Assembly (NCBI GenBank): GCA_016212295.1
Contig: JACRGO010000042.1
Span: 1 to 61,754 of the forward strand
DNA: 61,754 nt
Direction of reading: 5' to 3'
Origin: Nitrospinota bacterium
GTDB taxonomy: Bacteria; Nitrospinota; Nitrospinia; JACRGO01
Part shown: piece after piece, positions 8,697-58,195 of the stretch
Position numbering within the stretch: position 1 is the stretch's first letter
Layout: every line of letters begins with the position of its first letter
The notes under the pieces: model-generated
Database searches by the model: none
Seen by the model: the letters and a program-made list of their open reading frames with translations, nothing else
What the model was told of the DNA's origin: nothing
Position numbers and translations under genes: made by a program

Positions 8697-8707
8697 TAAA
8701 AAAAACA

Positions 8708-11632
8708 ATGTCAACCGAAATAAAAAAATTGTGGGTCTCCATGGGACTGCATTTCGCGGCGGTGGCTAGCATCATGCTCTGCAGGACCTATGTTGATTTA
8801 TTGTTTCTGTCCACATACCCGAAGTCCTGGCTCCCTTTTTACTTCATGGGGCAGACCGTCGCGACCCTTGTTCTCACCTACATCATCACCCCGCAAATAT
8901 CAAAGGGATCACGTTTAAGAATCTTTCTGAACCTTGTCATCTGCTCCCTGACCCTTGTCGCCGCCATATTCCTAATGGACCTTGAAATAGACTATTTCCC
9001 CTTTGCCCTTTGCCTGTGGCTGGCCGCGTTTTCGGTCCTACTGGGCGTGATCTCCTGGAATTGCGTCGGGGACGCCTTTGACGCCAGGGCCTTTAAAAGG
9101 ATCATTCTATGGATTAACGTCGCCGGGAGCGTCGGCGGATTGGTGGTGGGCCTGCTCATCCCCTCCATAATTTACTGGTACAGCGCGGACATGCTCTTGT
9201 ATATATTGATCGTGCTGACCCTTGTCCAGGGATGCCTGGTATACATGCTGGAGCCTTTGCCGGCCTCCTCCAGGAAGATGAAGGGCGGGCAATCGCCGAT
9301 GAATTATACCCTGTTCAAGAGCCTGGCCGTGGGCGTGTTTCTGCTTTTTGTAGTTGACACATTCGCCGACTACGCGCTCAAGGCCGAGGTGGGCGCGGCT
9401 TACACCAAGGAAGGTATCGGCAAATTCATGGGGCCGTTTTACGGCCTTTCAAGCGTACTCATCCTGGCTGTCCAGTTTGGCGGGACCAATCATCTTATAA
9501 AATATTTCGGGATCGCGGGGCTTCTGGCGGTTTTGCCCGGGTTCTGTCTTCTCGTTAATCTGGGTATGATAGCGTATCCCGGCCTTTGGGTCGCCGCCGC
9601 CTTCCGCATGGGGGAGATGGTGTTCCGCTACAGCGTGGACAACATAGGCCGCGAGCTTGCCGCCAATCCGTTGCCAAGCCCCATACGAAAGGCCGGAAAG
9701 CTTTTCCTCAAGGGAGTGGTCACGCCCATCGGCTCCGGGGCCGGAGCGGTGGTCCTGTGGCTTCTGGCCGAAACTTTCGGGCTTCGCGGCATAGCCTTCG
9801 CCACGGTGGCGGTTTCAGGGTTCTGGATGCTTGCTAACAGGCAGACCAGGAACGCATATCAGTCCACCCTGGAAGAAACGGTAAAGCAGAAGCGCTTTAT
9901 CGCTGACATGGATGGAGATGATCCGGCTAGCCGGGAGGCGTCAATGGGCGTCGCTTTACAGGCCCTTGGGGAAAAGGACCCGGACTCCATACGCTTCGGG
10001 TTGGCCTTGCTTGAGGACATTAAATTTGACAAAATACCCCAACCGGCCTTGGAGCACCTGAATTCCGAACACCCGGACATAAGGGCCTCGGTGCTGAAAT
10101 TGGCGATGAGGGTACAGGACACTGGCATTGTCCCAAGGCTTGTGAAACAGCTTGAGGCGGAGCGGGAGCCGGAGGTCGTCTGGCGGCTGCTGGACGCCTT
10201 GGCAGCCATTGACCCCGCCTCAGCCTCGCCCTTCGCGGAAAAATTATTGAAAAGCCAGGACGCCGAGATCAGGGCCAGCGCGATCCTGGTCCTGATGCTG
10301 GCCGGGAGCCTTAGCCTGCTGGCGGAAGCCGTCAATTCCTTGAAGGACATGGTTTTCAGCTCTGATCCCTTGATGCGCAAGGGGGCCGCCCGCGCCATGG
10401 GCGCTTTAAAAGGGGGCAAACTCGGACAGGAACTGCGGTTATTGATTCACGACCCTAGCGAGGACGTGTGCATAACCACCATCAGGTCCGCTTCCCAGCG
10501 CCAATCACTGTGCCTGATTGAGGACATAGCCTCCAAATTGGGGCGGGGAAGGACGTCGCACTACGCGAGCCGGGCCCTGGCGGAATTGGGAGTGGCCACG
10601 GTCCCGCACCTTCTGAAGGCAGCGCGCCAGGGAAAGGAAAGGACCATTCGCGCCGCTATAAAGACGATGGCCATGATCCCCGGGGAAGAAGTGGAAGACG
10701 CCCTGGCGGAGGTCGCCTGCTCTGAAATGCCGCTTACCAGGAACATCGTGGCCAAGGAGTCGGCCTTGCGCGCCGGCCGCATGCCGGTTTCCAAGGCGTT
10801 CAGGAAAAAGGCCATTGGCTTCGTGGAAGAAGAGGCCGGCGCGATCAGGATATTGAAATCCGGAAGGACCTTGGATTCACTTTCGGGCTTCGTGAAGTCC
10901 GAGCTGTCGTGCCGCCTGGGACTGGCCCAGACCAGGCTGCTTCATTGGTTCGCGGTCTGCACGCGGCCTGCCGAGGTGATGGGGGTGATGCCCCTGGTCC
11001 TTTCCGGCGAAAGGTCCAAGGACACGGCCGCGCGTCGCGGCGCCGCAATGGAATTGCTTGACACTCTTGCGTCCGACAAGAGGTTGAAGAATTCCATATT
11101 GGAGTTTGAAAAGGAGGCCCGCGCCAATGGGAACGCGGAAAAACTCATGGAGGAACTTAAAAATCTGAATGACCCGTGGCTCAGGAGGGTCCTTTCAGAC
11201 GAATTTCATGAATATAAAGGAGTCCCGATGAATATAGCCCAAAAGGTAATGGCGTTTAAAAAGGTCAAATTATTTGAAAGTCTGCCAGGCGAAATATTAA
11301 TGACCATCGCCGAGGAAAGCGAAACCCGGGAAATGATAAAGGGCGCTAAAATAGTGTCAACCGGCGAGGCCTCTGACGGCCTGTATATAATCGCTTCAGG
11401 GACCGTGCGCATTGAAATAAACGGCCAGCCGGTAAGGACCTTGGGGGAGAGCGATTTTTTCGGCGAGGTTGGGCTTTTGGATGATTCAGCCCGGGCCGCT
11501 GACGCAGTGGCCAACGAGGATGGGCTGCTATTTTTCATAGGAAAGGAAACCTTCGGCGCGATCACGGAAGACCTGCCGGAAGTCATGCGCGCCGTGGTCA
11601 AGACCATCATCGGTTATCTCAAGAAAAAGTAA
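8708..11632 (+). CDS. polytopic transporter-like (TLC/MFS-like) membrane domain - HEAT repeats - cyclic-nucleotide-binding domain protein
   Basis: About 420 aa of TM helices, including an RKAGKLFLKGVVTPIGSGAGA segment. The middle section has HEAT-like repeats (DPDSIRFGLALL, HPDIRASVLKLA, DAEIRASAILVL, DPLMRKGAARAMG). The C-terminal cNMP-binding fold reads FFGEVGLLDDSARAADAVA. I chose the ATG at 8708; the ORF-track start at 8621 lies inside a repeat. Confidence 0.7.
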   Translation: MSTEIKKLWVSMGLHFAAVASIMLCRTYVDLLFLSTYPKSWLPFYFMGQTVATLVLTYIITPQISKGSRLRIFLNLVICSLTLVAAIFLMDLEIDYFPFALCLWLAAFSVLLGVISWNCVGDAFDARAFKRIILWINVAGSVGGLVVGLLIPSIIYWYSADMLLYILIVLTLVQGCLVYMLEPLPASSRKMKGGQSPMNYTLFKSLAVGVFLLFVVDTFADYALKAEVGAAYTKEGIGKFMGPFYGLSSVLILAVQFGGTNHLIKYFGIAGLLAVLPGFCLLVNLGMIAYPGLWVAAAFRMGEMVFRYSVDNIGRELAANPLPSPIRKAGKLFLKGVVTPIGSGAGAVVLWLLAETFGLRGIAFATVAVSGFWMLANRQTRNAYQSTLEETVKQKRFIADMDGDDPASREASMGVALQALGEKDPDSIRFGLALLEDIKFDKIPQPALEHLNSEHPDIRASVLKLAMRVQDTGIVPRLVKQLEAEREPEVVWRLLDALAAIDPASASPFAEKLLKSQDAEIRASAILVLMLAGSLSLLAEAVNSLKDMVFSSDPLMRKGAARAMGALKGGKLGQELRLLIHDPSEDVCITTIRSASQRQSLCLIEDIASKLGRGRTSHYASRALAELGVATVPHLLKAARQGKERTIRAAIKTMAMIPGEEVEDALAEVACSEMPLTRNIVAKESALRAGRMPVSKAFRKKAIGFVEEEAGAIRILKSGRTLDSLSGFVKSELSCRLGLAQTRLLHWFAVCTRPAEVMGVMPLVLSGERSKDTAARRGAAMELLDTLASDKRLKNSILEFEKEARANGNAEKLMEELKNLNDPWLRRVLSDEFHEYKGVPMNIAQKVMAFKKVKLFESLPGEILMTIAEESETREMIKGAKIVSTGEASDGLYIIASGTVRIEINGQPVRTLGESDFFGEVGLLDDSARAADAVANEDGLLFFIGKETFGAITEDLPEVMRAVVKTIIGYLKKK

Positions 11633-16835: not shown

Positions 16836-17000
16836 GCGCGGCATGGCCGCAACCAAAATGAAAACAAAATCCCAAATGACAAATAGCAAATAAATTACAA
16901 TTACCGAATGCAAAAAACAATTCCTTTTCATTGTTTTTCCTTGTAATTTTGGTTATTGAGATTTATTTGTTATTTGACAATTGTTATTTGGAGTTTCATA
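16836..17000. repeat. GCGGC-box + family A word-hairpin element (full copy)
   Basis: GCGCGGCATGGCCGCAACCAAAATG, then an AT-rich left arm, the loop CCGAATGCAAAAAACAATTCC, and the right module TTGGTTATTGAGATTTATTTGTTATTTGACAATTGTTATTTGGAGTTTCAT. Confidence 0.9.
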
Positions 17001-19557: not shown

Positions 19558-19718
19558 AAAATTTTTCCTGCCTTCCTAAGAGAATACTCTAATAAGGAAT
19601 GCAGGAAACCAGGAGCCAGGAGCCAGAATATGCAAAAATTCGTAATTATTCAGGGTCTCATGCGCACTGAATAACTGCAAAAATTTTTCATTTATTCTGG
19701 CTACTGACTCCTGGGTTC
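19558..19718. repeat. word-hairpin element, family D (CCAGGAGCC words)
   Basis: Left arm GGAAACCAGGAGCCAGGAGCCAGAATA (19604-19630) versus right arm TATTCTGGCTACTGACTCCTGGGTTC (19693-19718). The leader AAATTTTTCCTGCCTTCCTAAGAGAA recurs at about 41240. A degenerate GCGGC-box lies at 19501-19526. Confidence 0.8.
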
Positions 19719-31329: not shown

Positions 31330-33870
31330 ATGCCGGAAAAAGAAGCCACGGCCCGTATCAAGATCAACAAACTGCTCGAAGCCGCCGGTTGGCGCTTCTT
31401 CGCTGACGGCAACGCGCCCGCCAACATCCGCCTGGAACCCAGCGTCACCATCAAATCCTCCGATCTCGACACTCTCGGCAATAACTTCGAGAAGACGGCC
31501 AAGGGCTGCATCGACTTCCTGCTCCTCGACGCCAAGGGCTTCCCGCTTATCGTTTTGGAGGCCAAATCAGAGGACAAGAATCCCCTCGCCGGCAAGGAGC
31601 AGGCTCGCAAATACGCCCGCTCCCAGAACTGCCGCTTCATTATCCTGTCCAACGGCAACCTGCACTATTTATGGGACCTGGAACGCGGCAATCCCTGCAT
31701 CATCACCTCCTTTCCCACGCCCGGCTCCGTGGCGGGCTGCCAGAAGGTCACTCCCAACCCCCAACGCCTTATCGAAGAACAGGTGGCCGGCGACTACATC
31801 GTCCTCACCCAGCGTCCGAATTACCAATCCGAGGCCGCATGGCGGAACGAGGCGGAACGTCCCGGCTACATCCGTACCAACAAACTTCGCTTTCTCAGGC
31901 CTTATCAATTGAAGGCCATCCACGACCTGCAACAGGCCGTAAAGGACGGCAAGGACCGCTTCCTGTTCGAGATGGCCACCGGCACGGGGAAGACCCTCAC
32001 CGCCGCCGCCGTGATAAAACTCTTTCTTCGTTCCGGCAATGCCCGGCGCGTCCTCTTCCTGGTGGACCGCCTGGAACTGGAGGATCAGGCGAGGAAAACC
32101 TTCGCCGCCCTGCTCTCCGCCGATTTCAAGACGGTGATTTACAAGGAGAACCGCGACGACTGGCAACGCGCTGAGATCGTGGTCACCACCGTGCAATCTC
32201 TACTATTCAACAACAAATACCAGAGGCTCTTCTCGCCCACGGACTTCGACCTGGTGATCTCGGACGAAGCGCACCGCTCCATCGGCGGCAACGCCCGCGC
32301 CGTCTTCGACTACTTCATCGGCTATAAACTCGGCCTCACCGCCACCCCCCGTGACTATCTGAAACGGTTTAATTCAACCAATCCATCCACCCGAGATCCC
32401 CGCGAGGCGGAGCGGCGGCTCCTCCTGGACACCTACCGCACCTTCGGTTGCGAGAACAGTCTCCCAACCTTCCGCTATTCACTCCTGGATGGGGTGAAGG
32501 AATGTTATCTGATCAATCCCACGGTGGTGGACGCTCGCACTGAAATCACCACGGAACTACTCTCCGAGGAAGGCTTTGTCGTCTCCGTCACCGACGACAC
32601 GGGCGAGGACCAGCAGGAGGCGTTCAAACAGCGCGAGTTCGAGAAACGTTTTTTCGCGGACGCCACAAATCGACTTTTCTGCAAGACCTTTCTCGAAAAT
32701 GCCCTGCGCGATCCCGTGAGCGGCGAGATGGGCAAGTCCGTCATTTTCGCCGTGAGCCAAAGCCATGCCGCCAAGCTGTCGCATATTCTCAATCTGATGG
32801 CGGACCGCATGTTCCCCGGCAAATACCGGTCCGACTTCGCCGTGCAGGTAACCTCACAGGTCCCCGACGCCCAGCAATTCACCATTAACTTCGCCAACAA
32901 CAACCTGCTCGGCTCGGCCAACTTCCTCCCCGCCTACAAGACCAGCAAGGCCCGCGTCTGCGTGACCGTGGGCATGATGACCACCGGCTAAGACTGCACC
33001 GACATCCTCAATCTCGGCCTCTTTCGTCCCATCTTTTCGCCCACCGACTTTATCCAGATCAAGGGACGCGGCACCCGCAATCATGACTTCCGCGACCAGC
33101 TTTTCGACGAGGGCCTGAAAGAGATTGTTCGGGAGCCGAGGAAGACCGCCTTCAAGCTCTTCGACTTCTTCGCCAACTGCGAGTATTTCGAGGAGGAATT
33201 CAACTACGACGAAGTGTTGAAACTGCCCCGACCCAAGGGCAAGGGCGGCGATGGGCCAGGAGGTGACGGACCTGTGATCCTGGACGGCGCCTACGAACAC
33301 CTGGGAGAGGATATCCTCTCCGAAATAAAGGAAGAGACCATCGGACGGGAAGGCATGAAGATCGACCGCATGTTCTTTGAAAAATTCGAGGACACGGTGC
33401 GCGAAGACCCCAACATAGCCCAGGCGGTGGAGGCCGGACACTGGGACCGCGTCATTGATTACGTCAACCGCGAGGTCTTTAATAAACCCGAGGAATATTA
33501 TAATCTGGAGAAACTGCGCCAGGCCGCCGCCGTGGATCGCCGCCTGACTCTTCGCGAAATCCTGGAAAAGATCTTCGGGCTCATCCCGCGCTTTAAATCC
33601 AAAAACGAACTGCTGGAGGAGGAGTTCGCCAAGTTCGTGGCGGACGCCAAGCCGGAGGAGGCCGAGGCCATCCCGGCCATCAAGAATTACTTCAAGGCCT
33701 ACGTCACCAGCGACCAGGTGCGGCACATCATCGAAAGCAAACTCTTCACCGACCTGGCCACCAATCCGGTCTTCTCCTCCCGCGACTTCAAGGCCGTGCC
33801 GCCGAAGTATCACTCCATCATCCCGGATTACGTCAAGGACTATGTGTCCCTGAACCAGTTCGTCCTTTAA
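31330..33870 (+). pseudogene. hsdR: type I restriction enzyme R subunit (HsdR) interrupted by one in-frame TAA
   Basis: N-terminal nuclease-like IDFLLLDAKGFPLIVLEAK. Helicase motifs MATGTGKT, ISDEAHRS and LGLTATP. One frame runs from 31330 to 33870 except for the TAA at 32989-32991, inside ...VGMMTTG-stop-DCTDILNLGLFRPIFSPTDFIQIKGRGTR. I checked 32992-33213 and found no other stop. Confidence 0.8.
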
Positions 33871-33882: not shown

Positions 33883-34599
33883 ATGTCCGAGAAAGAGACC
33901 CTCATCCCCAAACACGGCGGCTACCGGAAGCTGAAAAGTTTTCAAATAGCGCAATTGGTTTTTGATATTACCGTGCGCTTCTGCGAACGTTACATAGACA
34001 AGCGCAGCCGGACCACCGACCAGATGGTCCAGGCGGCGCGATCGGGGGTGCAGAACATCGCCGAGGGGAGCCAAGCCTCCGGGACCTCCAAAAAAATGGA
34101 ACTCAAACTCACCAACGTGGCCCGCGCCAGTATCGAGGAACTGCGCCTGGATTACGAGGATTTTCTAAGACAAAGAAACCTCCCCCTCTGGGGCCGCGAA
34201 GACCCCCGAAGACAAGACCTGATAAACAGGAGGTGTTCCACCGCCGATGAAGTGGCCCTCTGGGTAAAGGAAATACACGACCGTGGACGCCATGGACGGA
34301 GTGGACAGGGCAAACTCAAAGATCAGAATCATTCGTCCACAGCGTCCAATAGGTCCACCTCGTCCACTGTTTTTACTTCGTCCACCTATCCCGAAATCAC
34401 GGCGAATGCCGCCCTGACGCTCATTGCCGTGGCGCGCAGCCTCCTTGACCGCCAGCTTGCCGCTCAGGCAAAATCATTTGAAAGAGAAGGCGGCTTCACC
34501 GAGCGCCTCCACCGGGTGCGCTCCCAAAAACGCTCCTCCGCATCCGCCCGGTCCACGAAGTCCATTCCGTCCACCAAGAATAAAGGAACCCCATGTTAG
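33883..34599 (+). CDS. four-helix-bundle protein (TIGR02436-like, with suffix domain)
   Basis: YRKLKSFQIAQLVFDITVRFCERY...QMVQAARSGVQNIAEGS...ARASIEELRLDYEDFL. It carries an in-frame GTCCAC-word hairpin insertion. Confidence 0.7.
   Translation: MSEKETLIPKHGGYRKLKSFQIAQLVFDITVRFCERYIDKRSRTTDQMVQAARSGVQNIAEGSQASGTSKKMELKLTNVARASIEELRLDYEDFLRQRNLPLWGREDPRRQDLINRRCSTADEVALWVKEIHDRGRHGRSGQGKLKDQNHSSTASNRSTSSTVFTSSTYPEITANAALTLIAVARSLLDRQLAAQAKSFEREGGFTERLHRVRSQKRSSASARSTKSIPSTKNKGTPC
34281..34386. repeat. in-CDS word-hairpin (GTCCAC/GTGGAC words)
   Basis: CCGTGGACGCCATGGACGGAGTGGACAG (34281-34308) versus CGTCCACAGCGTCCAATAGGTCCACCTCGTCCAC...TCGTCCACC (34334-34386). Translated in frame as RGRHGRSGQG...SSTASNRSTSSTVFTSST. 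Confidence 0.75.
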
Positions 34600-37163
34600 A
34601 CACCGGCACCAAGCGCCGCATCGACACCGCCCGCGACATCCTGGTGGGGAAGGTCCCCGACCCCAAGTCCCAGGTCGAACAGATCACCATCGCCCTCATC
34701 TATAAGTTCATGGACGACATGGACGCCGAGAGCGAGGAGATGGGCGGCAAGCGCAAATTCTTCGCCAAGGAATTCGCCCGCTACGGCTGGGCCAAGCTCA
34801 TGCGCTCCGGCCTGGGCGGCCATGAAACCCTCAACCTCTACGCCGAGGCCATCGCCCGGATGCCGGAGAACCCCGGCATTCCGCCTCTCTTCCGCGACAT
34901 CTTCAAGAACGCCTATCTCCCTTACCGCGACCCGGAGACCCTGCGCGCCTTCCTTAAGATCATTGACGAGTTTACCTACGACCATAGCGAACGCCTGGGC
35001 GACGCCTTCGAGTATCTGCTCTCCGTCCTTGGCTCCCAGGGCGACGCAGGACAATTCCGCACCCCGCGCCACATCATCGATTTTATCGTGGAGGCCATCG
35101 ACCCGAAAAAGAACGAGTCCGTGCTGGACCCCGCCTGCGGCACCGCAGGGTTCCTGATCTCGGCGTACAAACACATCCTGAAGAACAATTCGGAAGAATT
35201 ACGAATGACAAATGACAAATTACGAATTGAAAACAATGGTTCCCCACCATCCGTAATTCGTAATTCTCAATTCGTAACTAATCTCACGCCCGACGACAAG
35301 GGACGTCTGGCAAAAAACTTCAAGGGTTACGACATCTCTCCCGACATGGTGCGCCTCTCCCTGGTGAACCTGTACCTACACGGCTTTACCGACCCGCACA
35401 TTTACGAATACGACACCCTCACTTCGCAGGAGAAATGGAACGAGTGCGCGGACGTGGTCCTGGCCAACCCGCCCTTTATGTCGCCGAAGGGCGGCATCAA
35501 GCCCCACAATCGTTTTTCCGTGCAGTCGAAGCGGAGCGAGGTCCTCTTCGTGGACTACATGGCCGAGCACCTGACGCCAAAGGGCAGGGCCGGGATCATT
35601 GTCCCGGAGGGGATTATCTTCACGAACCATACCGCCTACAAGCAACTGCGCAAGATGCTAATGGAGAATTCCCTCGTGGCCGTGGTCTCGCTCCCGGCTG
35701 GGGTGTTTAATCCCTATTCTCCAGTAAAGACCTCGATCCTGATTCTGGACAAGGTTCTTGCCAAACGAAGTGACTCCATCGCCTTCTTCAAGGTGGAAAA
35801 CGACGGCTTCGGCCTCGGCGCCCAACGCCGCCCCATCGAGAAGAACGACCTCCCCGCCGCTACCAATTTTCTCAAATCCTGGTTCCAGTCCCTTCGATCC
35901 ACCGCGTCCACTCTGTCCACTTTGTCCATACCCAACGGCCTCATTGTGGAAAAGGCAAAAATAGCGGCGAATGGGGAATATAACCTGAGCGGGGAGAGAT
36001 ATAGGGAGAATGGGGTTCTTGATCATGTCTTTCCACTGGTCAGGATAGGAGATGTATGCACTATCAACCCGCGTAAAAGCCAGTTGACCGATGTGGCGAC
36101 GGATACTCGCATTTCGTTTGTGCCCATGACCGATCTGAACGAACACTGCATGGCATTCAAACCCAGAGAAGAGAAACGACTTTCTGAGGTAGGGGCAAGC
36201 TACACTTACTTTGAGGACAATGATGTTCTTCTCGCTAAGGTGACCCCATGTTTTGAGAACGGAAAAGCTGGCATAGCACGTGGTCTTCTCAACGGAATTG
36301 GATTCGGTTCCAGCGAGTTTTATGTCTTACGGCCGAACGATCTGGTTTTGCCTGAGTGGATCTACTTCTGCGTGATGCACCCATCGTTCAGAGATGCCGC
36401 CGTCGCCCAAATGACCGGCACCGGTGGATTACAACGTGTTCCTAAAAGTTATGTGGAAGGATTTCAAATCCCCCTCCCCCCTCTGGAGGTGCAAAAGGAA
36501 ATCGTTTCAGAGATCGAGGGCTACCAGAAGGTCATCGACGGCGCCCGCGCCGTCCTCGACAACTACCGCCCCCACATCCCCATCCATCTTGAATGGCCGA
36601 TGGTGGAGTTGGGCGAGGTGTGCTTTTTATTTGGCGGTGGAACACCTTCGAAGCAAAGAAAGGAATATTGGAGTGGTGGAAAAATAAAATGGATATCTTC
36701 TAAACACATTAATGAAGAAGGTAAAATTACTGGTTATGAAACAATAACCAAGGAAGCTGTGAATTCTTCTTCTACCAAAGTTATTCCAAAAGGTTCGACA
36801 GTTGCGATTACAAGGGTGTCCGTCGGTAAAATTGCGTTTGCCGATGATGATTATGCAATTAATCAAGACTTAACTGGGCTTACTTCAAAAAACACAGCCC
36901 AATTGAATGAAAGTTTTTTATTTTACTCAACAAGACGATTGGGTGCGGTAATTGACAAAAATGCTCAAGGAATAGGGGTAAGAGGAGTCACAAGAGATTT
37001 TCTTTCCAAATTGAAAATCCCCCTCCCGCCCCTCGCCACGCAGAAAGCCATCGTCGCCGAGATCGAAGCAGAGCAGGCGATAGTTTCGGCCAACCGCGAA
37101 CTCATCTCCCGCTTCGAGAAAAAAATTCAAACCACTCTCGCCAGAGTATGGGAGGAGTCATGA
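34593..37163 (+). CDS. fused type I N6-adenine DNA methyltransferase (HsdM) and specificity subunit (HsdS, two TRDs)
   Basis: Motif I LDPACGTAGFL and motif IV VLANPPFMSPKGG. These are followed by two target-recognition domains separated by HsdS conserved repeats (IPLPPLEVQKEIVSEIEGYQKVID and IPLPPLATQKAIVAEIEAEQAIVS). The ATG overlaps the preceding stop. Confidence 0.85.
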   Translation: MLDTGTKRRIDTARDILVGKVPDPKSQVEQITIALIYKFMDDMDAESEEMGGKRKFFAKEFARYGWAKLMRSGLGGHETLNLYAEAIARMPENPGIPPLFRDIFKNAYLPYRDPETLRAFLKIIDEFTYDHSERLGDAFEYLLSVLGSQGDAGQFRTPRHIIDFIVEAIDPKKNESVLDPACGTAGFLISAYKHILKNNSEELRMTNDKLRIENNGSPPSVIRNSQFVTNLTPDDKGRLAKNFKGYDISPDMVRLSLVNLYLHGFTDPHIYEYDTLTSQEKWNECADVVLANPPFMSPKGGIKPHNRFSVQSKRSEVLFVDYMAEHLTPKGRAGIIVPEGIIFTNHTAYKQLRKMLMENSLVAVVSLPAGVFNPYSPVKTSILILDKVLAKRSDSIAFFKVENDGFGLGAQRRPIEKNDLPAATNFLKSWFQSLRSTASTLSTLSIPNGLIVEKAKIAANGEYNLSGERYRENGVLDHVFPLVRIGDVCTINPRKSQLTDVATDTRISFVPMTDLNEHCMAFKPREEKRLSEVGASYTYFEDNDVLLAKVTPCFENGKAGIARGLLNGIGFGSSEFYVLRPNDLVLPEWIYFCVMHPSFRDAAVAQMTGTGGLQRVPKSYVEGFQIPLPPLEVQKEIVSEIEGYQKVIDGARAVLDNYRPHIPIHLEWPMVELGEVCFLFGGGTPSKQRKEYWSGGKIKWISSKHINEEGKITGYETITKEAVNSSSTKVIPKGSTVAITRVSVGKIAFADDDYAINQDLTGLTSKNTAQLNESFLFYSTRRLGAVIDKNAQGIGVRGVTRDFLSKLKIPLPPLATQKAIVAEIEAEQAIVSANRELISRFEKKIQTTLARVWEES
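35196..35278. repeat. in-CDS word-hairpin (ATTACGAAT/GACAAAT words) inside hsdM
   Basis: GAATTACGAATGACAAATGACAAATTACGAATTG (35196-35229) versus CCGTAATTCGTAATTCTCAATTCGTAAC (35251-35278). Core stem AATTACGAATT / AATTCGTAATT. It encodes ELRMTNDKLRIENNGSPPSVIRNSQFVTN between MTase motifs I and IV. Confidence 0.8.
35896..35929. repeat. in-CDS GTCCAC-word half element
   Basis: GATCCACCGCGTCCACTCTGTCCACTTTGTCCAT encodes STASTLSTLS at the HsdM/HsdS junction. A related half copy lies at 34549-34575. Confidence 0.6.
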
Positions 37164-39457
37164 TTACGAAAATCAAACGACTTAAAAACATTGGAAAATT
37201 TTATGACTTTTCGGCACAGGCAAACGCCCTCGACTGGCATAAGAACACATTTGTTTTAGCCCCTAATGCTTATGGTAAAACAACCCTTGTCAATGTTCTT
37301 CGCTCGCTCTGTGATAATAACCCAAAGTTGATCCGCGCCCGAAAAACCCTGGGCTCAACCACCGAACCTGAAGCGATAATTGTGATTGACAGCGCGAACT
37401 ACGTTTTCAATGGCACAAGATGGGATCAGCCATATCCAGCGATTCAGATTTTCGACGCGCCCTTCATTCACGCCAATATCCTTACGCACGAAATCGGCCA
37501 TGAGCACAAGAAGAACATCCATAAAATCATCATCGGCGCGGAAGGGGTCAAGCTGGCCGATGAGCTTTCAAACCTGAAAGCGAAGGAAAAGGCGAAGAGC
37601 CAGGAAGTTGTAAATCTTGCCAAACAGTTCACTCTGGGAGGGTTCATCACCTTGTCGTTCGATGCATTCCTTGCTCTTCATCCCAACGAGGAAGCAGCCG
37701 TTGGCCCGCGCATTCAACAACTGGAACAAGACATCAAGTTGAAACAATCAGAGGGGGCCGTTCAAGGACTTGACTTCCCTCGTACAATCGAGGCCCCGGC
37801 GTTCGATTCAACCGGCATGAAGGCGACTGTCGCCAAGAAGTTGACCGCCACGCATGAAACCGCTGAAAAGCGTATGCTTGAACATATTGACTGGAACTTC
37901 AAAGACAAGGCTCACGCAAAGCAATTTATCCGCCTAGGCCTTGACCATGCACAGGCGAATTGCCCTTTTTGCGGGCAAGACCTCAAAAACGCTACGGACC
38001 TGTTAAAGGCATACAGGGAATTTTTCGACGATGCATTCCGGACGTACCAGCAAAGTATTGTCCAACAGCTCGCCGCGGTGAGTGGGTGGAATATCGATAA
38101 CGACCTCACTGCCTTGGTTTCAGCGCACAATTTAAACCTTGCTACGTTGAGACAGTGGGAGCCTTACCTCGGCACAATTGCGTTACCGGATGTCGTCACA
38201 GCAGTTGACTCATGCCGATCCAGATTAGTTGAGTTGAAAGGCAAGATTCAATCCGAACTGGAGAAGAAGCAGAAAGACCCCAATACCGACGCAGACCAGT
38301 CGCAATTCGACGCTCTTACCACTGAACTTGCCTGGTTGAAGACTGCTGTCGAGGGGTACAACGCCGCAGTGTCCTCTTTTATCGAGAAAGCCAAACAGTA
38401 CATTGCCAATCTCCCGAAGTCGGACATTACTTCACTCCAAGGTGCATTGGCTAAAGAGAAAGAAATAAAAAAATGGTTTGAGCCCGGATGGAAAAGATTG
38501 GCTACCGATTACCCAGCGACAAAGAAGGAGGCTGATGCTCTCATCAACCAAAAGAATGCGAAACAGAAAGAACTTGAGACATACGGTAAGGCCATTTTCG
38601 ATACTTATCAGAAGCGGATCAATGAATTACTCGTGACATTAGGAACCGACTTTATCATCACAGGTTTGGCCGGGAAGACAGATGCACGGGCAAATGAAAG
38701 TTACACCGATTTCGGTTTCCTCATTCTGAAACAAACAGTTCCGCTGGCAACTCGCCAGGATGATGTGCCTTGTTTCAAAAACACGCTCAGCGAAGGCGAC
38801 AAGAGCACTCTTGCTTTTGCTTTTTTTATCGCAATGCTGGAGAAGACCCCGGAACTTGAAAAACAAATCGTCGTCCTCGATGACCCGCTTTCCAGTCTGG
38901 ATGAAACACAGAGGGAGGCAACCGCCCGATTACTATTGGCCTTATCACCTGCCGTGAAACAGATTACAGTATTCACACATAAACGGGACTTTCTGTATAT
39001 GCTTTGCGATAAGATACCAGAAAACCAAGTCCTACAGATCCGTTCGGACAAAAAAAGCGGTAGCCGATTTGAGTTTTTCAACTTGGAGGAAGAGCGCAAA
39101 AGTGATCATGCCCGTATAATCGAGGATATGGAGCGCTATATTGATGAAGATTTTGGTCCAACTACCGATTCGATGCAAGGCAATATTCGGAAGCTTTTTG
39201 AAGTTGTTCTCAAAACCAAGTACTACAGCACCCTTGCCGTGGACATAAAGGCCAATCGTGGTTTATCATCCCTTTTAACCACTCTTTTCAATGCCGGGCT
39301 TCTGGATACTACCTTGAAACCACGCTTGTTTGACCTGTGTTCAGTGGCAAATGGCCCTCATCACGGTGAAATAGTTGATGCAACTCCAAGGAGGCTCAGC
39401 AGAGATGAACTTATCTCTTTAATACGGGAAGCCCTTGATCTTGTGCAAAAAGTCTAA
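37160..39457 (+). CDS. rloC: RloC-like AAA_13 (PrrC/RloC family) ATPase with coiled-coil zinc hook; candidate anticodon nuclease
   Basis: IKRLKNIGKFY start, Walker A APNAYGKTT, and a long coiled-coil insert containing CPFCGQ (37961-37975). ABC signature LSEGDKSTLAFAF, Walker B IVVLDDPLSSLD, H-loop VFTH. The C-terminal region has RKLFE and GPHHGE. The ATGA start overlaps the hsdMS stop, and a GGAGGAG ribosome-binding site lies upstream. Confidence 0.65.
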   Translation: MITKIKRLKNIGKFYDFSAQANALDWHKNTFVLAPNAYGKTTLVNVLRSLCDNNPKLIRARKTLGSTTEPEAIIVIDSANYVFNGTRWDQPYPAIQIFDAPFIHANILTHEIGHEHKKNIHKIIIGAEGVKLADELSNLKAKEKAKSQEVVNLAKQFTLGGFITLSFDAFLALHPNEEAAVGPRIQQLEQDIKLKQSEGAVQGLDFPRTIEAPAFDSTGMKATVAKKLTATHETAEKRMLEHIDWNFKDKAHAKQFIRLGLDHAQANCPFCGQDLKNATDLLKAYREFFDDAFRTYQQSIVQQLAAVSGWNIDNDLTALVSAHNLNLATLRQWEPYLGTIALPDVVTAVDSCRSRLVELKGKIQSELEKKQKDPNTDADQSQFDALTTELAWLKTAVEGYNAAVSSFIEKAKQYIANLPKSDITSLQGALAKEKEIKKWFEPGWKRLATDYPATKKEADALINQKNAKQKELETYGKAIFDTYQKRINELLVTLGTDFIITGLAGKTDARANESYTDFGFLILKQTVPLATRQDDVPCFKNTLSEGDKSTLAFAFFIAMLEKTPELEKQIVVLDDPLSSLDETQREATARLLLALSPAVKQITVFTHKRDFLYMLCDKIPENQVLQIRSDKKSGSRFEFFNLEEERKSDHARIIEDMERYIDEDFGPTTDSMQGNIRKLFEVVLKTKYYSTLAVDIKANRGLSSLLTTLFNAGLLDTTLKPRLFDLCSVANGPHHGEIVDATPRRLSRDELISLIREALDLVQKV

Positions 39458-39590: not shown

Positions 39591-39677
39591 GATTTTGTAA
39601 TTTTGGTATTGAAATTTATTTGTTATTTGACAATTGTGATTTGAAATTTTATCCGCGATAATCCGCGTTATCCGCGT
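39591..39677. repeat. family A right module + (ATCCGCG) words
   Basis: GATTTTGTAATTTTGGTATTGAAATTTATTTGTTATTTGACAATTGTGATTTGAAATTTTATCCGCGATAATCCGCGTTATCCGCG. Confidence 0.85.
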
Positions 39678-42949: not shown

Positions 42950-42954
42950 TAATT

Positions 42955-43067
42955 CACCGCAAAGACGCAAAGGCCGCAAAGTTTTAATTTTTTGAAGAAG
43001 AATGCCGCCATCAGGGCTTTTTTATAATTTGCTGATTTTCCTTTGCGTTCTTTGCGTCTTTGCGGTG
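42955..43067. repeat. word-hairpin element, family C (CAAAGACGCAAAG words)
   Basis: CACCGCAAAGACGCAAAGGCCGCAAAG (42955-42981) versus CCTTTGCGTTCTTTGCGTCTTTGCGGTG (43040-43067). Confidence 0.85.
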
Positions 43068-46129: not shown

Positions 46130-46287
46130 TAGCGCGGCATGGCCGCAACCAAAAACAAGAAATAACCACAAAGGACACAAATTTGAACGCTTTGTGGTAA
46201 AAAATACTCTAGCCAGAATTACAAATGACAAACAAGGAAATGGAATTGTTTTGGGCATCCGGTAATTGTAATTTGTAATTTGAACGC
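46130..46287. repeat. GCGGC-box + small family C-like hairpin + family A hairpin
   Basis: TAGCGCGGCATGGCCGCAACCAAAAAC. ACCACAAAG...CTTTGTGGT (46164-46199). GAATTACAAATGACAAACAAGG versus CCGGTAATTGTAATTTGTAATT. Confidence 0.85.
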
Positions 46288-46322
46288 CGTCTTAATTTTT
46301 TTAGGAGGTTTTTGGTCCCGCT

Positions 46323-47594
46323 TTGGACGAGTCTATAATTATTCGATTAATATTTCTCGGGGCCCTGCTTGCCCTTTCCGCCTTTTTCTCCGGCTGCGAG
46401 GCGGCCTTTTTTTCTCTTAGCAGGCTGAAGGTCGACAACCTTGAATCCCAAAAGGGCCGAAGGGGGAAAATGGTCGCCGCCCTCCTCGCCAACCCCAGGC
46501 TGCTCCTGACCGTTATTTACGCCGGCAATGAGATGGTCAACGTCGCGGCGGCAGCGGTTGTCACCTCTGTTTCCATCCATTTCCTTGGCGACTCCGGCGT
46601 CGGCTTCGCCATAGGCATCGGGACTTTGCTGATCCTGGTCTTTGGGGAAATCACCCCTAAAACGCTTGTATTGAGACACGCCGAGAGCTTCGCCCTGGGC
46701 GCCGCCCCCTTTCTCAATATTTTCTCCCTTCTCATTAAGCCAGTGAACCAATTATTGGCCCGCATCGCCGATCTTTCCGTGCACATCTTTTTACCTATAC
46801 ATAGAAAAAAGGGAGAGCTTACCGAGGGAGAAATCAAAACCATCGTCACGGTCGGGGAAGGGGAAGGGGTCATCGAAGCCGACGAAAAGGACCTTATCCA
46901 CAACATCTTTGAATTTGGAGACACCACCGTCTCGGAAATAATGACCCCGAAGAACGATGTTTTTTCCCTTGACGCCAACACCTCGGTCCCGGATATCATC
47001 TCACGCGCGAAGAAAACCTTTTTCTCCAGAATTCCGGTTTACGAGGACAATAAGGAAAATATCATCGGCGTCCTTTATATGAAGGACATCCTGAGGCTGC
47101 ATATTTCCGGCAAAAAAGATCTGTCTCTTCGCCAGATGCTGCATCCGGCCTTCATCATTCCCGAATCAAAGAAGGTGCGGGACCTGTTGAGGGACTTTAA
47201 AATCAAGAAGGTCCACCTTGCCGTGGTCTACGACGAATACGGCGGCCTGGAGGGAATCGCTACCCTTGAGGACGTCCTTGAGGAAATAGTAGGGGAGATT
47301 GAAGGGGAGCGGCGAAGGGACGATGTGCCTGTCATCAAGATGAATGAGAATGAATATGCCGTCCTTGGCAATGTGCCGATTCAGGACTTCAACGAGGAAT
47401 TCGGCTCTTCCCTGCCGGACGAGGAATACAACAGCATAGGAGGATTTGTTTTCAGCCTGCTTGGAAGGCTCCCCATCAAGGGAGAATCTGTTTCCCATGA
47501 AAACATGCGGTTTATAGTGGACAAGGTGAAGGGACCCAGGATTTTAAGGCTATTGCTGAAGGTGAATATTAAACCGGAAGAAAAGGCAGCATAG
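46323..47594 (+). CDS. CNNM/TlyC-family protein (DUF21-CBS pair-CorC_HlyC)
   Basis: FFSGCEAAFFSLSR and GEITPKT (DUF21), a CBS pair, and the C-terminal GGFVFSLLGRLP (CorC_HlyC). TTG start. Confidence 0.8.
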   Translation: MDESIIIRLIFLGALLALSAFFSGCEAAFFSLSRLKVDNLESQKGRRGKMVAALLANPRLLLTVIYAGNEMVNVAAAAVVTSVSIHFLGDSGVGFAIGIGTLLILVFGEITPKTLVLRHAESFALGAAPFLNIFSLLIKPVNQLLARIADLSVHIFLPIHRKKGELTEGEIKTIVTVGEGEGVIEADEKDLIHNIFEFGDTTVSEIMTPKNDVFSLDANTSVPDIISRAKKTFFSRIPVYEDNKENIIGVLYMKDILRLHISGKKDLSLRQMLHPAFIIPESKKVRDLLRDFKIKKVHLAVVYDEYGGLEGIATLEDVLEEIVGEIEGERRRDDVPVIKMNENEYAVLGNVPIQDFNEEFGSSLPDEEYNSIGGFVFSLLGRLPIKGESVSHENMRFIVDKVKGPRILRLLLKVNIKPEEKAA

Positions 47595-47780
47595 CGCGAC
47601 GCGGCCGCAATCAAAAGGAAATGGGAAACAAAATTACAAATGACAAATATCAAATTACAAATAAATTCCAAATTACAATTACCGAATGTCCAAAACAATT
47701 CCATTTCCTTGTTTGTCATTTGTAAATTTGGTTATTGAGATTTATTTGTGATTTGGCAATTGTGATTTGGATTTTCATAA
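47591..47780. repeat. GCGGC-box + family A word-hairpin element (full copy)
   Basis: ATAGCGCGACGCGGCCGCAATCAAAAGG; the gene's TAG stop at 47592-47594 lies inside the box. Nested inverted words follow: GGAAATGG/CCATTTCC and ACAAATGACAAA/TTTGTCATTTGT. The right module ends in TTTCAT. Confidence 0.9.
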
Positions 47781-47872: not shown

Positions 47873-49213
47873 ATGTTTTTCCGCGCCCTGCCTGGATGTG
47901 CATTGTTAGTTGTGCTGTTTGGATGCTCCAAACCGCCGGCTGAAAACCTGCTCTTTATTTCCTTTGACACCACGAGGGCGGACCACCTCTCGGCTTACGG
48001 CTATAAAATTAAAACTTCGCCCAATATCGACGCCCTTGCCGCCCAGGGCGTCCTTTTCCAAAGGGCCTTTTCCCATGCGCCTTCCACCCTGCCGTCCCAT
48101 GCTTCCATGTTTACAGGAAAACTACCCCCGGACCACGGCGTTCGCTGCAACGGCAAATTCACGCTGCCGGAAGAACAATTAACGCTTGCGGAAATACTAT
48201 ACGGCAACGGATTTGAAACCGGCGCGGTATTGGGGGCCTTTCCGTTGGACAAGCGTTTCGGACTGGACCAGGGATTCAGTTTTTATGATGATGATTTCAG
48301 ATTGTCACAATTAACTTTAAAACACCAGGCAAGCGAAAGGGTAATGGACAAAGTGGGCTTCTGGCAGGGGCAAACTTATTTGGATTTTGAGCGCAATGCG
48401 TATGAGGTCACAACCCTTGCCACAAAGTGGCTGCAAAAAACAAAGGGAAGGTGGTTCCTTTTCGTTCATTATTTTGATCCACACGAGCCTTATGAACCGC
48501 CCCCGGCTTGGAGGACGCTCTTTGAAAATCAGTATGACGCTGAAATCGCCTTCGCGGACCGCCAGTTAGGGAAGCTCCTGGAGACCGTGAATTCGATGCC
48601 TGGGAAGACGTTAATAGTTTTTACCGCTGACCACGGACAGGGATTGGGAGACCATGGGGAGATAACCCATGATCGCTATCTGTACGACTCCACCCAATGG
48701 ATCCCCCTCGTCTTTTGCATGAAAGATAAGATTAAAGCTGGGAGCAAAATCATAAATCCTGTGAGCCATATAGATGTAATGCCGACCATTCTTGATTTAT
48801 TGGGCGTTCCTTCCACCGAAGGCATTCAAGGAAGGTCATTGGCCAAGGCCATCCTTGCCGGGGAAGACCTGGAAAATAAACCCATTTACATGGAATCCCT
48901 TAGCCATAAACTGGAAAAGCCTGAAGGCATTGACGTCAGGGGCCTGGTGCGGGATAACTGGAAATTCATACTCACCAATGAAGAACATGGGGGTAAAAAG
49001 ACTATAAGGAAAGAGCTTTATGATCTGGACTCCGGGGGGGGGGGGGGGGGGGAGAACGCCGATTTGTCATTAAAGGAAGCGGGCCGCGCCGCTGAGATGG
49101 ATAAAAAATTGTCAGGCTGGGTGGAAAAACTGGAACATGAAGGGGCTAAACCAAACCCCCTTAAAATCAGCGAGGAAACAAGGCAAAAGCTGAAAAGTTT
49201 GGGGTATTTATAA
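47873..49213 (+). CDS. sulfatase-like (alkaline-phosphatase superfamily) lipoprotein
   Basis: Lipobox-like LLVVLFGC. LLFISFDTTRADHLSAYGY metal site. The nucleophile region reads APSTLPSHASMFTG, i.e. T-x-P-S-H rather than C/S-x-P-x-R. I chose the ATG at 47873. Confidence 0.75.
   Translation: MFFRALPGCALLVVLFGCSKPPAENLLFISFDTTRADHLSAYGYKIKTSPNIDALAAQGVLFQRAFSHAPSTLPSHASMFTGKLPPDHGVRCNGKFTLPEEQLTLAEILYGNGFETGAVLGAFPLDKRFGLDQGFSFYDDDFRLSQLTLKHQASERVMDKVGFWQGQTYLDFERNAYEVTTLATKWLQKTKGRWFLFVHYFDPHEPYEPPPAWRTLFENQYDAEIAFADRQLGKLLETVNSMPGKTLIVFTADHGQGLGDHGEITHDRYLYDSTQWIPLVFCMKDKIKAGSKIINPVSHIDVMPTILDLLGVPSTEGIQGRSLAKAILAGEDLENKPIYMESLSHKLEKPEGIDVRGLVRDNWKFILTNEEHGGKKTIRKELYDLDSGGGGGGENADLSLKEAGRAAEMDKKLSGWVEKLEHEGAKPNPLKISEETRQKLKSLGYL
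49034..49052 (+). repeat. G19 homopolymer inside the sulfatase-like CDS
   Basis: I counted 19 consecutive G from 49034 to 49052. They encode Gly6 in the current frame (DLDSGGGGGGENADL). Confidence 0.95.
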
Positions 49214-50830: not shown

Positions 50831-50959
50831 CAGCGCTGCTTCGACGCAACCAAAATGAGAGCAAAATTTCAAATCCCAAATAGCAAATTACAAATAAGTT
50901 CCAAACTACAATTGCATAGAGCGGCATGGCCGCAACCAAAATAAATTTCGATGCATTCA
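50831..50959. repeat. two GCGGC-boxes flanking a family A arm
   Basis: CAGCGCTGCTTCGACGCAACCAAAATG, then an AT-rich arm, then CATAGAGCGGCATGGCCGCAACCAAAATAAATTTCGATGCATTCA. Confidence 0.85.
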
Positions 50960-51950: not shown

Positions 51951-52054
51951 CTTAAATTCCCCTCTGGAGAGGGGTGGCCGAAGGCCGGGGTGTGTCTTTT
52001 CTCGTTCCCAGGGTTGTCATGAAAAACCGGAGAAAACCTCATTATCTATTTTTT

Positions 52055-52157
52055 ACATCCCCCTTGGTCCCCCATTGCTAAGGGGGAATTAAAACAGGGC
52101 CTATTTTTGGGGTTTTTCCCGTATTCCCCATTAGCAAAGGGGGACCAAGGGGGATGT
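52055..52157. repeat. word-hairpin element, family G (CCCCCTTGGTCCCCC words)
   Basis: ACATCCCCCTTGGTCCCCCATTGCTAAGGGGG (52055-52086) versus TCCCCATTAGCAAAGGGGGACCAAGGGGGATGT (52125-52157). Confidence 0.85.
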
Positions 52158-53730: not shown

Positions 53731-53820
53731 TAAATCCTTTCTTCCTTTTTCGACGTTCGATGTTCAGCGTTGGATGTTCGATGTTCAATTCTTTAAAGCC
53801 CGCCCGAAGGGCGTTAAATT
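53731..53820. repeat. family B half element with conserved tail
   Basis: TAAATCCTTTCTTCCTTTTTCGACGTTCGATGTTCAGCGTTGGATGTTCGATGTTCAATTCTTTAAAGCCCGCCCGAAGGGCGTTAAATT is about 90 percent identical to 75-163. Confidence 0.9.
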
Positions 53821-57000: not shown

Positions 57001-57196
57001 GAAACCAAATTTCAAATGACAAATAACAAATCCCAAATAAATTCCAAATTACAATTGCTGAATGTGCTGAGCAATTCCTTTTCCTTGTTTGTTCTTTGTA
57101 ATTTTGGTTATTGAGATTTATTTGTGATTTGACATTTGTGATTTGGAGTTTCATGGCGCGGCACGGCCGCAACCAAAATAAATTTCGACGTATTCA
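57001..57196. repeat. family A word-hairpin element (full copy) + extended GCGGC-box
   Basis: AT-rich left arm, the loop GCTGAATGTGCTGAGCAATTCC, the right module TTGGTTATTGAGATTTATTTGTGATTTGACATTTGTGATTTGGAGTTTCAT, then GGCGCGGCACGGCCGCAACCAAAATAAATTTCGACGTATTCA. Confidence 0.9.
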
Positions 57197-57310: not shown

Positions 57311-57964
57311 TCAAACCTGTTTCAGCCTTTCCAGGTCTTCATCCTTGCCCAATACCACGAGGACGTCGCTGTCCTTTATTATAAAATCAGGGCTTGGAAT
57401 TATATTGAACTTTTCCGGGACAAGCTCCCTTATCGCCACAACCTGCACATTATAATCACTTCTTATTTTCAGGCTCTTGATCGATTTGCCGATAAATGAT
57501 TGGGGAGGGGCTATTTCCATTAAACTGTAGCCGGGCGAGAGCTCGAGTTGATCCAGGACATTCGCGGAGCTCAGGGTGTCGCCCAGCCTTACCGCCATGT
57601 CCCTTTCCGGGAATATTATGCTGGAGGCCCCTATTTTGCTCACTATCTTGGCATGGTCCTCGTTAAGCACCTTGACAATGACTTCCTTTATCCCCAATTC
57701 CTTCAGATACAGGGTGATCAATATGCTGGCGCTCATATCGCTGCCAAGGCTTACTATCACTCCATCGGCCTTTTCCAGGCCGAGGGATTTGAGGGTCTCC
57801 TTATCGCAGCCGTCCGCCACGATGGCCTCGCTGACATAATCCTTTACGTCCTGTATCTTGTCCTTGTCAATATCCAGGACCATCACCTCGCAACCATTGT
57901 TCGCCAATTGCAAGGCAAGGTGGTGGCCGAAACTGCTGAGCCCGATGACAACAAACTGTCTCAT
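57311..57964 (-). CDS. ktrA: TrkA/KtrA-type K+ uptake regulatory protein (RCK N and C domains)
   Basis: VIGLSSFGHHLALQL Rossmann motif. 217 aa. Confidence 0.85.
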   Translation of the reverse strand: MRQFVVIGLSSFGHHLALQLANNGCEVMVLDIDKDKIQDVKDYVSEAIVADGCDKETLKSLGLEKADGVIVSLGSDMSASILITLYLKELGIKEVIVKVLNEDHAKIVSKIGASSIIFPERDMAVRLGDTLSSANVLDQLELSPGYSLMEIAPPQSFIGKSIKSLKIRSDYNVQVVAIRELVPEKFNIIPSPDFIIKDSDVLVVLGKDEDLERLKQV

Positions 57965-58037: not shown

Positions 58038-58195
58038 TTCATGAAAATCCAAATAACAATTGTCAAATAACAAATAAATTGCAATAACCAAAATTGCAAA
58101 AAAACAAACAAGGAAATGACATTATTTTGGACATTCGGTAATTGTGATTTGTAATTTATTTGTCATTCGGAATTTGCCATTTGAGATTTTATTTT
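58038..58195. repeat. family A word-hairpin element (full copy, inverted orientation)
   Basis: ATGAAAATCCAAATAACAATTGTCAAATAACAAATAAATTGCAATAACCAA is the reverse complement of the right module of the 47591 and 57001 copies. It occupies the ktrB-ktrA intergenic gap. Confidence 0.9.

Follow-up and report, generated by a model that had tools for sequence, protein, structure and literature searches.

The stretch of DNA analysed here, referred to as the window, is the 61,754-nt contig JACRGO010000042.1 of a Nitrospinota bacterium (assembly GCA_016212295.1). It carries a type I restriction-modification (R-M) operon, in the methyltransferase gene of which a short AT-rich palindrome is read in frame. 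The host gene, hsdMS (34593..37163, + strand), encodes a protein of 856 aa in which a type I methyltransferase (aa 1 to ~470) is fused to a specificity subunit with two target recognition domains (TRDs). Pfam N6_Mtase matches aa 133-472 (E 7e-48), as for a gamma-class N6-adenine methyltransferase, Methylase_S gives two matches, and HsdM chains, 5ybb and 2okc among them, head the list of PDB matches. Motif I (DPACGTAGFL, aa 179-188) and the catalytic motif IV (NPPF, aa 292-295) stand in the required order, and the type I partners are at hand, namely the two-TRD HsdS in the same polypeptide and an upstream gene with HSDR_N and ResIII domains. The protein scores below the NCBIfam cut-offs for hsdM equivalogs (TIGR00497, 51 bits against 243; MAD2, 101 bits against 720), and nearly all of its close homologues are the same M-S fusion, of 810-833 aa; judging from these sequences, hsdMS belongs to a distinct M-S fusion subfamily.

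Replacement of a short HsdM loop by a palindrome

The insert (35190..35282, + strand; 93 nt, residues S200-N230) consists of two inverted arms of tandem heptamers around a central spacer. The left arm (35196..35229, + strand) is made of AATTACG-type units (AATTACG, AATGACA, AATGACA, AATTACG, then AATTG), the spacer (35230..35250, + strand), which is the loop of the palindrome, contains a small internal hairpin and a loop in the predicted folds, and the right arm (35251..35278, + strand) is an inverted array of CGTAATT-type units. Tandem Repeats Finder (TRF) detected both arms at period 7, as GAATTAC in 4.7 copies at 35196-35228 and as CGTAATT in 3.7 copies at 35252-35277. Over 29 nt the arms (35199-35227 and 35249-35277) are 76% complementary, and in the palindrome core AATTACGAATT (35218-35228) and AATTCGTAATT (35255-35265) are complementary at 11/11 positions. 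The 10-mer AATTACGAAT has five occurrences in the window, where 0.13 would be expected, and three of the five fall within the insert segment. Compared with shuffles, the fold of the 96-nt segment gave a z-score of -3.2 as RNA (1/200 shuffles as good) and of -4.2 as DNA (0/200). A strict period-7 detector and an ungapped inverted-repeat detector (score >= 14) both missed this palindrome, which is degenerate.

A preliminary description, made from the letters of the window, had proposed that an in-frame hairpin repeat lies between motif I and motif IV, that it is AT-rich unlike the rest of the gene, and that it is read through as about 30 aa. The present analysis agrees on all three points: the reading frame is uninterrupted, with inverted arms and the fold z-scores given above, the GC content of the segment is 0.35-0.36 against ~0.55-0.65 in the flanking gene (0.33 for the insert against 0.60 for the gene), and the insert is translated as 31 aa (…NSEELRMTNDKLRIENNGSPPSVIRNSQFVTN LTPDD…) with no stop, the variant unit TCAATTC of the right arm taking away an otherwise in-frame TAA.

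That the segment is an insertion is established by comparison with homologues. A search over 5.8 billion proteins returned thousands of relatives, of which the best 120 (78-83% identical, from very different phyla; 115 scorable) were aligned together with 80 loci from GTDB species representatives (71-84% identity, >15 phyla). The distance from motif I to NPPF is 90 residues, with the loop KANTDAKGNSTLTPDE, in 88 of the 115 scorable proteins and 113 residues in the window, and the same short loop is present in 60/80 genomic loci. At the codon level, the canonical eight codons (TDAKGNST) are missing from the window, where 35190-35282 takes their place with a net gain of 23 aa. The HsdM chains in the PDB align on either side and leave query aa 196-239 unaligned, where 5ybb has 14 residues. 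Therefore, 35190-35282 is an insertion that replaced the native loop, and the alignment fixes its ends. The site is, as had been suggested, a variable loop of gamma-class N6-methyltransferases, and no other part of the M domain varies as much as the 8-aa loop.

The preliminary description had regarded a similar segment in HsdM proteins of unrelated taxa as a sign that nothing was inserted. Such segments do occur, in the loci L001 and L061 and in metagenomic alleles; yet most alleles have the short loop, so the insertion stands. The same homologues bear on the notion that an assembly chimera or a sequencing artefact produced the segment, to which the sharp drop in GC is the sole pointer: homologous inserts at the same codons, likewise in frame, are found in independent assemblies (L001/L153, L119 and L061) and in the protein P0012, and we consider an artefact practically negligible.

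Recurrent insertion sites in the operon family and spread of the arm

Hairpin-type inserts occupy exactly this loop in 19 of the 80 loci, belong to at least five unrelated sequence classes, and are all in frame and stop-free. Class A, the AT-rich AATTACG arrays with the peptide NSELQITND...IRNSQFVIN, comprises the window, L001 and L061, and also L119, L153 and P0012. Class B is GC-rich (example peptide SPSPLAGEGRGEG; 7 loci), class C consists of GATCGGTCN arrays (DRSDQSD; 3 loci), class D of CAGGATNNN arrays (MDIQDEQDK; 4 loci), and class E is found in 2 loci; more insert classes exist among the protein homologues. L011 is counted apart from the 19, because what it has at the same loop is a plain tandem duplication of 10 codons. 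A fold z-score below -2 was obtained for 7/19 inserts, of classes A, C and D, against 0/19 control segments. We abandoned the supposition that heptamers underlie every insert class: the period is 9 nt in classes C and D and in the GTCCAC arrays of the window. The possibility that the insert abolishes methylation, raised in the preliminary description, is unlikely, given that all methyltransferase motifs are intact and that 19/19 hairpin-type inserts at the site are in frame and free of stops; from its sequence the methylase of the window is probably still functional.

Two more places in the operon are occupied in a similar manner. Across the family, the M-S linker contains a second cluster of inserts, of the classes found in the loop, and at the R-M junction more than 300 nt of extra DNA separates hsdR from hsdM in 38/78 loci. 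The cargo of this junction includes genes for a four-helix bundle with a suffix domain, KilA-N proteins, Fic/DOC, small PD-(D/E)XK (PDDEXK_3) genes and an IS200-like Y1 transposase. The PDDEXK_3 genes in L033, L063, L071 and L075 are bracketed by inverted short-period arrays, which are of class D in L033, L071 and L075, and in L071 the loop insert and the arm beside the PD-(D/E)XK gene of that locus share 97% identity over 32 nt. In L079, a Y1 transposase (Y1_Tnp) gene sits between arms resembling repetitive extragenic palindromic (REP) sequences, and the class of its flanking repeat recurs in the linker inserts of L061 and L079. The operon family thus has three recurrent landing pads: the R-M junction, the HsdM loop and the M-S linker.

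As a control for the distribution of inserts, the alignment of HsdR was used instead of element density per region. This gene is conserved to the same degree as its neighbour and is carried by the same genomes. The 64 full-length hsdR copies contain only two short internal insertions, and the 8 broken copies result from frameshifts or deletions, never from hairpins. Random insertion followed by purging of harmful events therefore fails to explain the pattern, because disruptive insertions in hsdR, which would be expected to be tolerable, are not seen. Since it is always precisely these eight codons that are replaced, whatever the class of the insert, a landing-pad model would be the most economical account. 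Outside the loop, insert status showed no association with flank haplotype.

The hairpins could instead be cis-acting RNA or DNA signals (for example for RNase III processing, for pausing of translation or for replication/recombination), kept to set the M : S : R ratio. The significant fold, the presence of hairpins at three operon boundaries and the conservation of the arms at the nucleotide level would all fit such a role, and stems of the same architecture in intervening sequences (IVSs) of rRNA are RNase III substrates (PMC4990558). However, three quarters of the operons do without a hairpin, the stem in the window is interrupted, and the classes are unrelated, several of them folding no better than shuffles, with no covariation analysis possible across them; we find this explanation distinctly unlikely.

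Class-A inserts at this site are shared between phyla. Over 31 nt, the right arm and the insert of L061, from an Akkermansiaceae metagenome-assembled genome (MAG), are 97% identical, and the match to the insert of L001, from a Neomarinimicrobiota MAG, is perfect at 26/26 nt; the insert is homologous to the same-site inserts in alleles from other phyla and in metagenome contigs. Between L001 and L119, which come from one metagenome, the inserts are identical at 81/81 positions on flanks that are 85-89% identical, and perfect identity extends beyond the insert by 18 nt on the upstream side and by ~40 nt on the downstream side (-18 to +121). This pattern reads as the signature of a recent inter-allele transfer with co-conversion of short flanks.

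The same pair of loci weighs on the view that the loop and the linker are adaptively hypervariable, under diversifying selection, for example for escape from anti-restriction proteins or for tuning of assembly with HsdR, with palindromes as mere raw material. In its favour, about a quarter of the alleles are occupied, by at least five unrelated sequences that are always in frame, variation within the M domain peaks at the canonical 8-aa loop itself, and hsdR has no such sites. Conservation, however, is at the nucleotide rather than the protein level, as in L001 and L119 (81/81 on flanks 11-15% diverged), and the same elements also lie in non-coding operon junctions and in intergenic DNA elsewhere, which makes diversifying selection an unlikely origin of the inserts.

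The exact 25-mer arm GTAATTCGTAATTCNCAATTCGTAA is found in four viral contigs, as intergenic hairpins, and in at least 120 metagenome contigs, many of the metagenomic copies adjoining arrays of other heptamers; a BLAST search of the insert against GenBank phages gave no match. Among the listed metagenome matches, 22 copies of the arm lie inside stop-free open reading frames (ORFs) of >=200 aa that encode unrelated proteins, including PheT-like and QueE-like proteins, an ABC ATPase, glycosyltransferases, several C-terminal domains of the type IX secretion system (T9SS), three more hsdMS and an hsdR-like gene. In L118, L137, L141, L161, L168, L192 and L202 the class-A arm occupies a similar position in the T9SS C-terminal sorting domains of different proteins, read as peptides such as ITNCELRIT and LRIANYELR; these domains may be another recurrent in-frame site, or may reflect paralogous spread.

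Expansion of a simple sequence in situ by polymerase slippage, with no mobile element, would be in keeping with the view that heptanucleotide repeats, the most abundant long simple-sequence repeats in prokaryotes, arise by slippage (Mrazek 2007, as cited in PMC4679880), and with the 10-codon tandem duplication in L011. Slippage is nevertheless highly improbable here: the two arrays are inverted, the native eight codons are gone instead of expanded, and an identical 25-nt arm recurs in at least 120 unrelated contigs and beside four-helix-bundle genes. Models of palindromic filler at double-strand breaks and of fold-back priming were set aside, since the arms are not copied from the local flanks and recur exactly elsewhere.

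The window has its own intergenic palindromic family, of ~150 nt with CAAATNA heptamers, in eight copies within 61 kb (about 8586-8660, 16862-16995, 39594-39650, 46206-46290, 47626-47775, 50862-50915, 57001-57150 and 58044-58195); the ORFs 46323-47594 and 57311-57964 are each bracketed by inverted copies of it. A copy of this family could have jumped into hsdM in this lineage, as a host-specific event like those of the Rickettsia palindromic elements (RPEs). The two do have heptamer words in common, with a best match of 24/27 nt (copy at 47632-47658) and 14 window hits of ATTACGAATGACAAAT at up to 3 mismatches against 0.6 expected, and the eight copies are accompanied in the window by several other heptamer palindromes. 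Against such an event, the CG-containing AATTACG unit is foreign to the CAAATNA family, the two AATTACGAAT matches outside the insert are both isolated, and inserts at the same codons in other phyla, in loci that lack the family, share 97-100% identity with the right arm; the CAAATNA family is indeed absent from all other loci compared. The likeness to the intergenic elements that the preliminary description had pointed out is therefore real but weak, as it extends to heptamer words and no further, and the idea that the insert is a copy of that family finds no support, the family being absent elsewhere and the insert homologous to alleles of other phyla; we hold a host-specific jump to be very unlikely.

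Four-helix-bundle genes and the likeness to rRNA intervening sequences

Class-A arms also occur with a gene between them. Directly after hsdMS in L034 there is a 121-aa TIGR02436 gene (E 1e-33; closest solved structure 2rld) with inverted class-A arms on both sides, and TIGR02436-type genes in L045, L129, L136 and L147 likewise lie between class-A arms, L206 being also among the same-arm elements with a gene. In L031 a four-helix-bundle gene lies between arms of another class. When the insert was compared by BLAST with the PLSDB plasmids, a match was found on plasmid pAfl69 of Dolichospermum flos-aquae, where an annotated four-helix-bundle gene between a helicase gene and a DNA-methyltransferase gene is enclosed by two arrays, (CGTAATT)4 and (AATTACG)4, one at either side. 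The left arm of the window matches the Dolichospermum array at 38/45 positions, including the junction AAAACxATG past the repeats, and the right arm at 26/29; the left arm matches that of the L034 element at 33/40. The local scores of these arm matches are 23-30, against a mean of 6.3 for random window segments.

Four-helix-bundle genes on isolate plasmids show the same arrangement. In a sample drawn from Dolichospermum, Euhalothece, Bernardetia, Treponema, Anabaena cylindrica, Chondrinema, Nostoc punctiforme, Planktothrix and Chlorohelix, 9/9 genes lie between inverted tandem-heptamer arrays, the unit differing from element to element (AATTCGC in N. punctiforme), with inverted-repeat scores of 12.5-33.5 against 8.7 +/- 1.3 for shuffled flanks. 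Several of the heptamer-armed genes sit in defence operons, between cas2 and cas1, between drmD and MmeI (DISARM), beside N6-methyltransferases and beside a HEPN protein; examples are L211 (Anabaena cylindrica pANACY.01), L214 (Planktothrix agardhii p1), L208 and L215.

This architecture is the one published for the Coxiella representative of the IVSs, which interrupt helix 9, 25 or 45 of 23S rRNA. In the Coxiella 23S IVS, a stem of 28-bp terminal inverted repeats and tandem heptameric repeats, with the heptamer GACAGAT, accompany an S23p ORF, and RNase III carries out the excision (PMC4990558). The insert has terminal inverted repeats with an extended stem (29-nt arms) and tandem heptamers in these arms. 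It thus shares with the IVSs of Coxiella, Leptospira, Xanthomonas and Brucella the stem-forming inverted repeats, the heptamer arms and, when cargo is present, the TIGR02436/PF05635 gene. In both cases a functional molecule gives up a short hairpin or loop of its own to the element and yet is not destroyed, ORF-bearing and ORF-less forms exist, and the distribution is sporadic and horizontal (PMC4990558). Unlike the rRNA elements, the insert sits in a protein-coding gene, would be translated rather than excised, and has no cargo ORF.

Based on these findings, we propose, with a probability of roughly 0.6, that the insert derives from a selfish palindrome of the IVS-like kind, in a copy without an ORF, and is tolerated in a permissive loop of HsdM. 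What places it in this family is the similarity of the arms and the common architecture rather than a mechanism that has been demonstrated. The full-length relatives would be those elements in which a four-helix-bundle gene (TIGR02436/PF05635, '23S rRNA intervening-sequence protein') lies between the same arms. The element would have replaced the 8-codon loop and be translated as a 31-aa loop, leaving all the methyltransferase motifs intact. The site may have been colonised and then re-used with turnover of element classes, and the elements could spread between alleles by recombination or by a homing-like process that co-converts short flanks. The loop is predicted to be a connection from the helix after motif I to strand beta2, at the edge of the Rossmann fold opposite the cofactor-binding loops, so that an extra loop on the face away from the cofactor site could be tolerated. 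We regard the loop as permissive because inserts are uniformly in frame in about a quarter of the alleles and because of this fold topology. By analogy with the rRNA IVSs, the RNA stem might also be a substrate of RNase III.

Several observations weigh against this proposal. The palindrome of the window is degenerate, with arms that are 76% complementary, the insert contains no S23p or four-helix-bundle ORF, and the window shows no class-A element with cargo. No class-A copy was found in 23S rRNA, in a motif screen in which the fetched loci contained no rRNA; no target-site duplication or conserved junction was apparent at the junctions of intergenic copies that were inspected, and neither a transposase nor a homing enzyme was identified for the element. 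The GC-rich classes B and E fold no better than shuffles. The neighbour-joining tree is star-like with the classes scattered over it, and independent insertion and recombinational spread are not cleanly separable there. The AlphaFold2 model of the M domain, built with 38 close homologues, reached a predicted confidence (pLDDT) of 45, and the surface exposure of the loop is for that reason derived solely from fold topology and the sequence alignments with PDB chains. Finally, the hsdR gene of the window carries a nonsense codon, so that tolerance of the insert in this copy could also reflect decay.

Other known repeat systems resemble the insert in part. RPEs are palindromes of ~100 nt, confined to one genus, that are found in frame in ORFs, where they are tolerated as an extra surface peptide, and also between genes. 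The analogy with them drawn in the preliminary description holds at the level of behaviour, namely in-frame palindromic insertion. In contrast to the Rickettsia-restricted family, the arm described here is identical across phyla and in viral contigs, by which it stands apart from the RPE description; moreover, its arms are tandem arrays of short period, several classes share one site, and four-helix-bundle or PD-(D/E)XK genes occur as cargo. REP sequences form hairpin doublets of inverted repeats (REPINs) that are mobilised by RAYT (Y1) transposases, and they are genome-specific and vertically inherited. A small gene lies between the same repeats in both systems, and one class of the operon family surrounds Y1_Tnp in L079, whereas the class-A arms, in no case observed together with a Y1 transposase, are tandem heptamers, not a single imperfect palindrome. 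MITEs, which are miniature transposable elements derived from an insertion sequence, have terminal inverted repeats and a target-site duplication. The insert has inverted arms; no duplication was visible at the inspected junctions of intergenic copies, and we know of no parent insertion sequence for the class-A element. Heptanucleotide repeats are known as the short tandemly repeated repetitive (STRR) sequences of cyanobacteria, TAACTGA in Beggiatoaceae and GGGAATC in Xanthomonas (70-75 convergent pairs); their arrays have 2-10 units, often in inverted pairs, and are mostly intergenic, and it has been suggested that in marine Beggiatoaceae the TAACTGA repeats take part in regulating translation (PMC4679880, PMC4692102). 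The insert is likewise built of head-to-tail 7-nt units, but those papers treat STRR and long simple-sequence repeats (LSSRs) as simple-sequence or G-quadruplex repeats, with no cargo gene and no in-frame insertion into an enzyme (PMC4679880, PMC4692102).

A broader proposal, which we put forward tentatively as possible rather than probable, is that inverted 7- or 9-nt arrays, whether or not they enclose a tiny gene as cargo (four-helix-bundle or PD-(D/E)XK 'GxxExxY'), constitute one pan-bacterial selfish family, of which 23S IVSs, cyanobacterial STRRs and Xanthomonas heptamers would be special cases, and which would re-use landing pads in defence operons, spread in a homing-like manner and be translated as loops in enzymes. 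Speaking of one superfamily is an extrapolation from classes A, D and F, because classes B and E fold like shuffles. If this broader proposal were true, the hsdM insert would be the first recognised protein-coding 'IVS'. If the insert is indeed an ORF-less IVS-like palindrome, a joint explanation would be available for rRNA IVSs with their unexplained S23p ORF, for over-abundant heptamer repeats and for in-frame palindromic inserts in proteins, and a widely transferred R-M operon would have fixed sites that selfish elements re-use while the enzyme stays readable. For annotation, such inserts yield odd low-complexity peptides in otherwise conserved enzymes; they also bear on how defence islands gather small genes, and could reveal permissive insertion sites in HsdM for engineering.

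In the literature searched we found no account of four-helix-bundle genes between inverted heptamer arrays outside rRNA, of IVS-like elements as translated inserts in enzymes, or of recurrent landing pads in an R-M operon, and neither the arm sequence nor its peptides turned up in a full-text search. Within that literature, what appears new relative to the known RPEs, heptamer repeats and rRNA IVSs is the translated IVS-like insert in an enzyme, the armed four-helix-bundle genes outside rRNA, and the landing pads in R-M operons.

Neighbouring genes and other repeats of the window

Upstream of hsdMS, hsdR (31330..33870, + strand; 846 codons; Pfam HSDR_N and ResIII) has an in-frame TAA at 32989-32991, in place of a Tyr of the helicase-domain motif TTGYDC that is conserved in 62/64 homologues. 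Either this hsdR is a pseudogene or the TAA is a sequencing error; short of such an error, the restriction subunit would be dead. With the nonsense codon, the system of the window is therefore at most a solitary methylase. Decay of hsdR is common in this operon family; in L051, the hsdR at 8061-9722 has a large internal deletion that leaves a 553-aa ORF, which coincidentally has the same length as the truncated hsdR ORF of the window, and hsdR is frameshifted or truncated in five other loci. Overlapping the end of hsdMS, a gene at 37148-39457 encodes a 769-aa AAA_13/SMC-like ATPase, possibly a partner of the R-M system that is of the abortive-infection or anticodon-nuclease type.

The cargo at the R-M junction of the window is a gene (33883..34599, + strand; 238 aa) for a four-helix bundle with a suffix domain, situated between hsdR and hsdM. 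Its product matches NCBIfam TIGR02436 at aa 18-88 and TIGR04258 at aa 170-218, and Pfam 23S_rRNA_IVP; homologues span 210 to 311 aa. The gene between hsdR and hsdM is missing in 35/78 loci, where hsdR abuts hsdM. Between its two domains lies a second in-frame palindrome (34283..34390, + strand), of 9-nt period (GTGGAC / GTCCAC), detected by TRF and by searches for direct and inverted repeats. A single-arm copy of GTGGAC / GTCCAC (34545-34575) lies just upstream of the hsdM start, and a single-arm GTCCAC array (35885..35930, + strand; TRF period 9, 2.6 copies) occupies the M-S linker, where it is translated as STASTLSTLS and is 76% identical over 41 nt to 34344-34384.

Further short-period palindromes of the window include one with the unit GAACATC at its very start (5-137), a solo right arm of which (53735-53790) follows a small ORF starting at 53617, and others at 19604-19717 (CCAGGAG), 42954-43066 (CGCAAAG-type) and 52054-52156 (35-nt arms). 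In addition, a 33-nt tandem repeat (2.9 copies, 95% matches) lies at 60877-60972, and a run of 19 G at 49034-49052.

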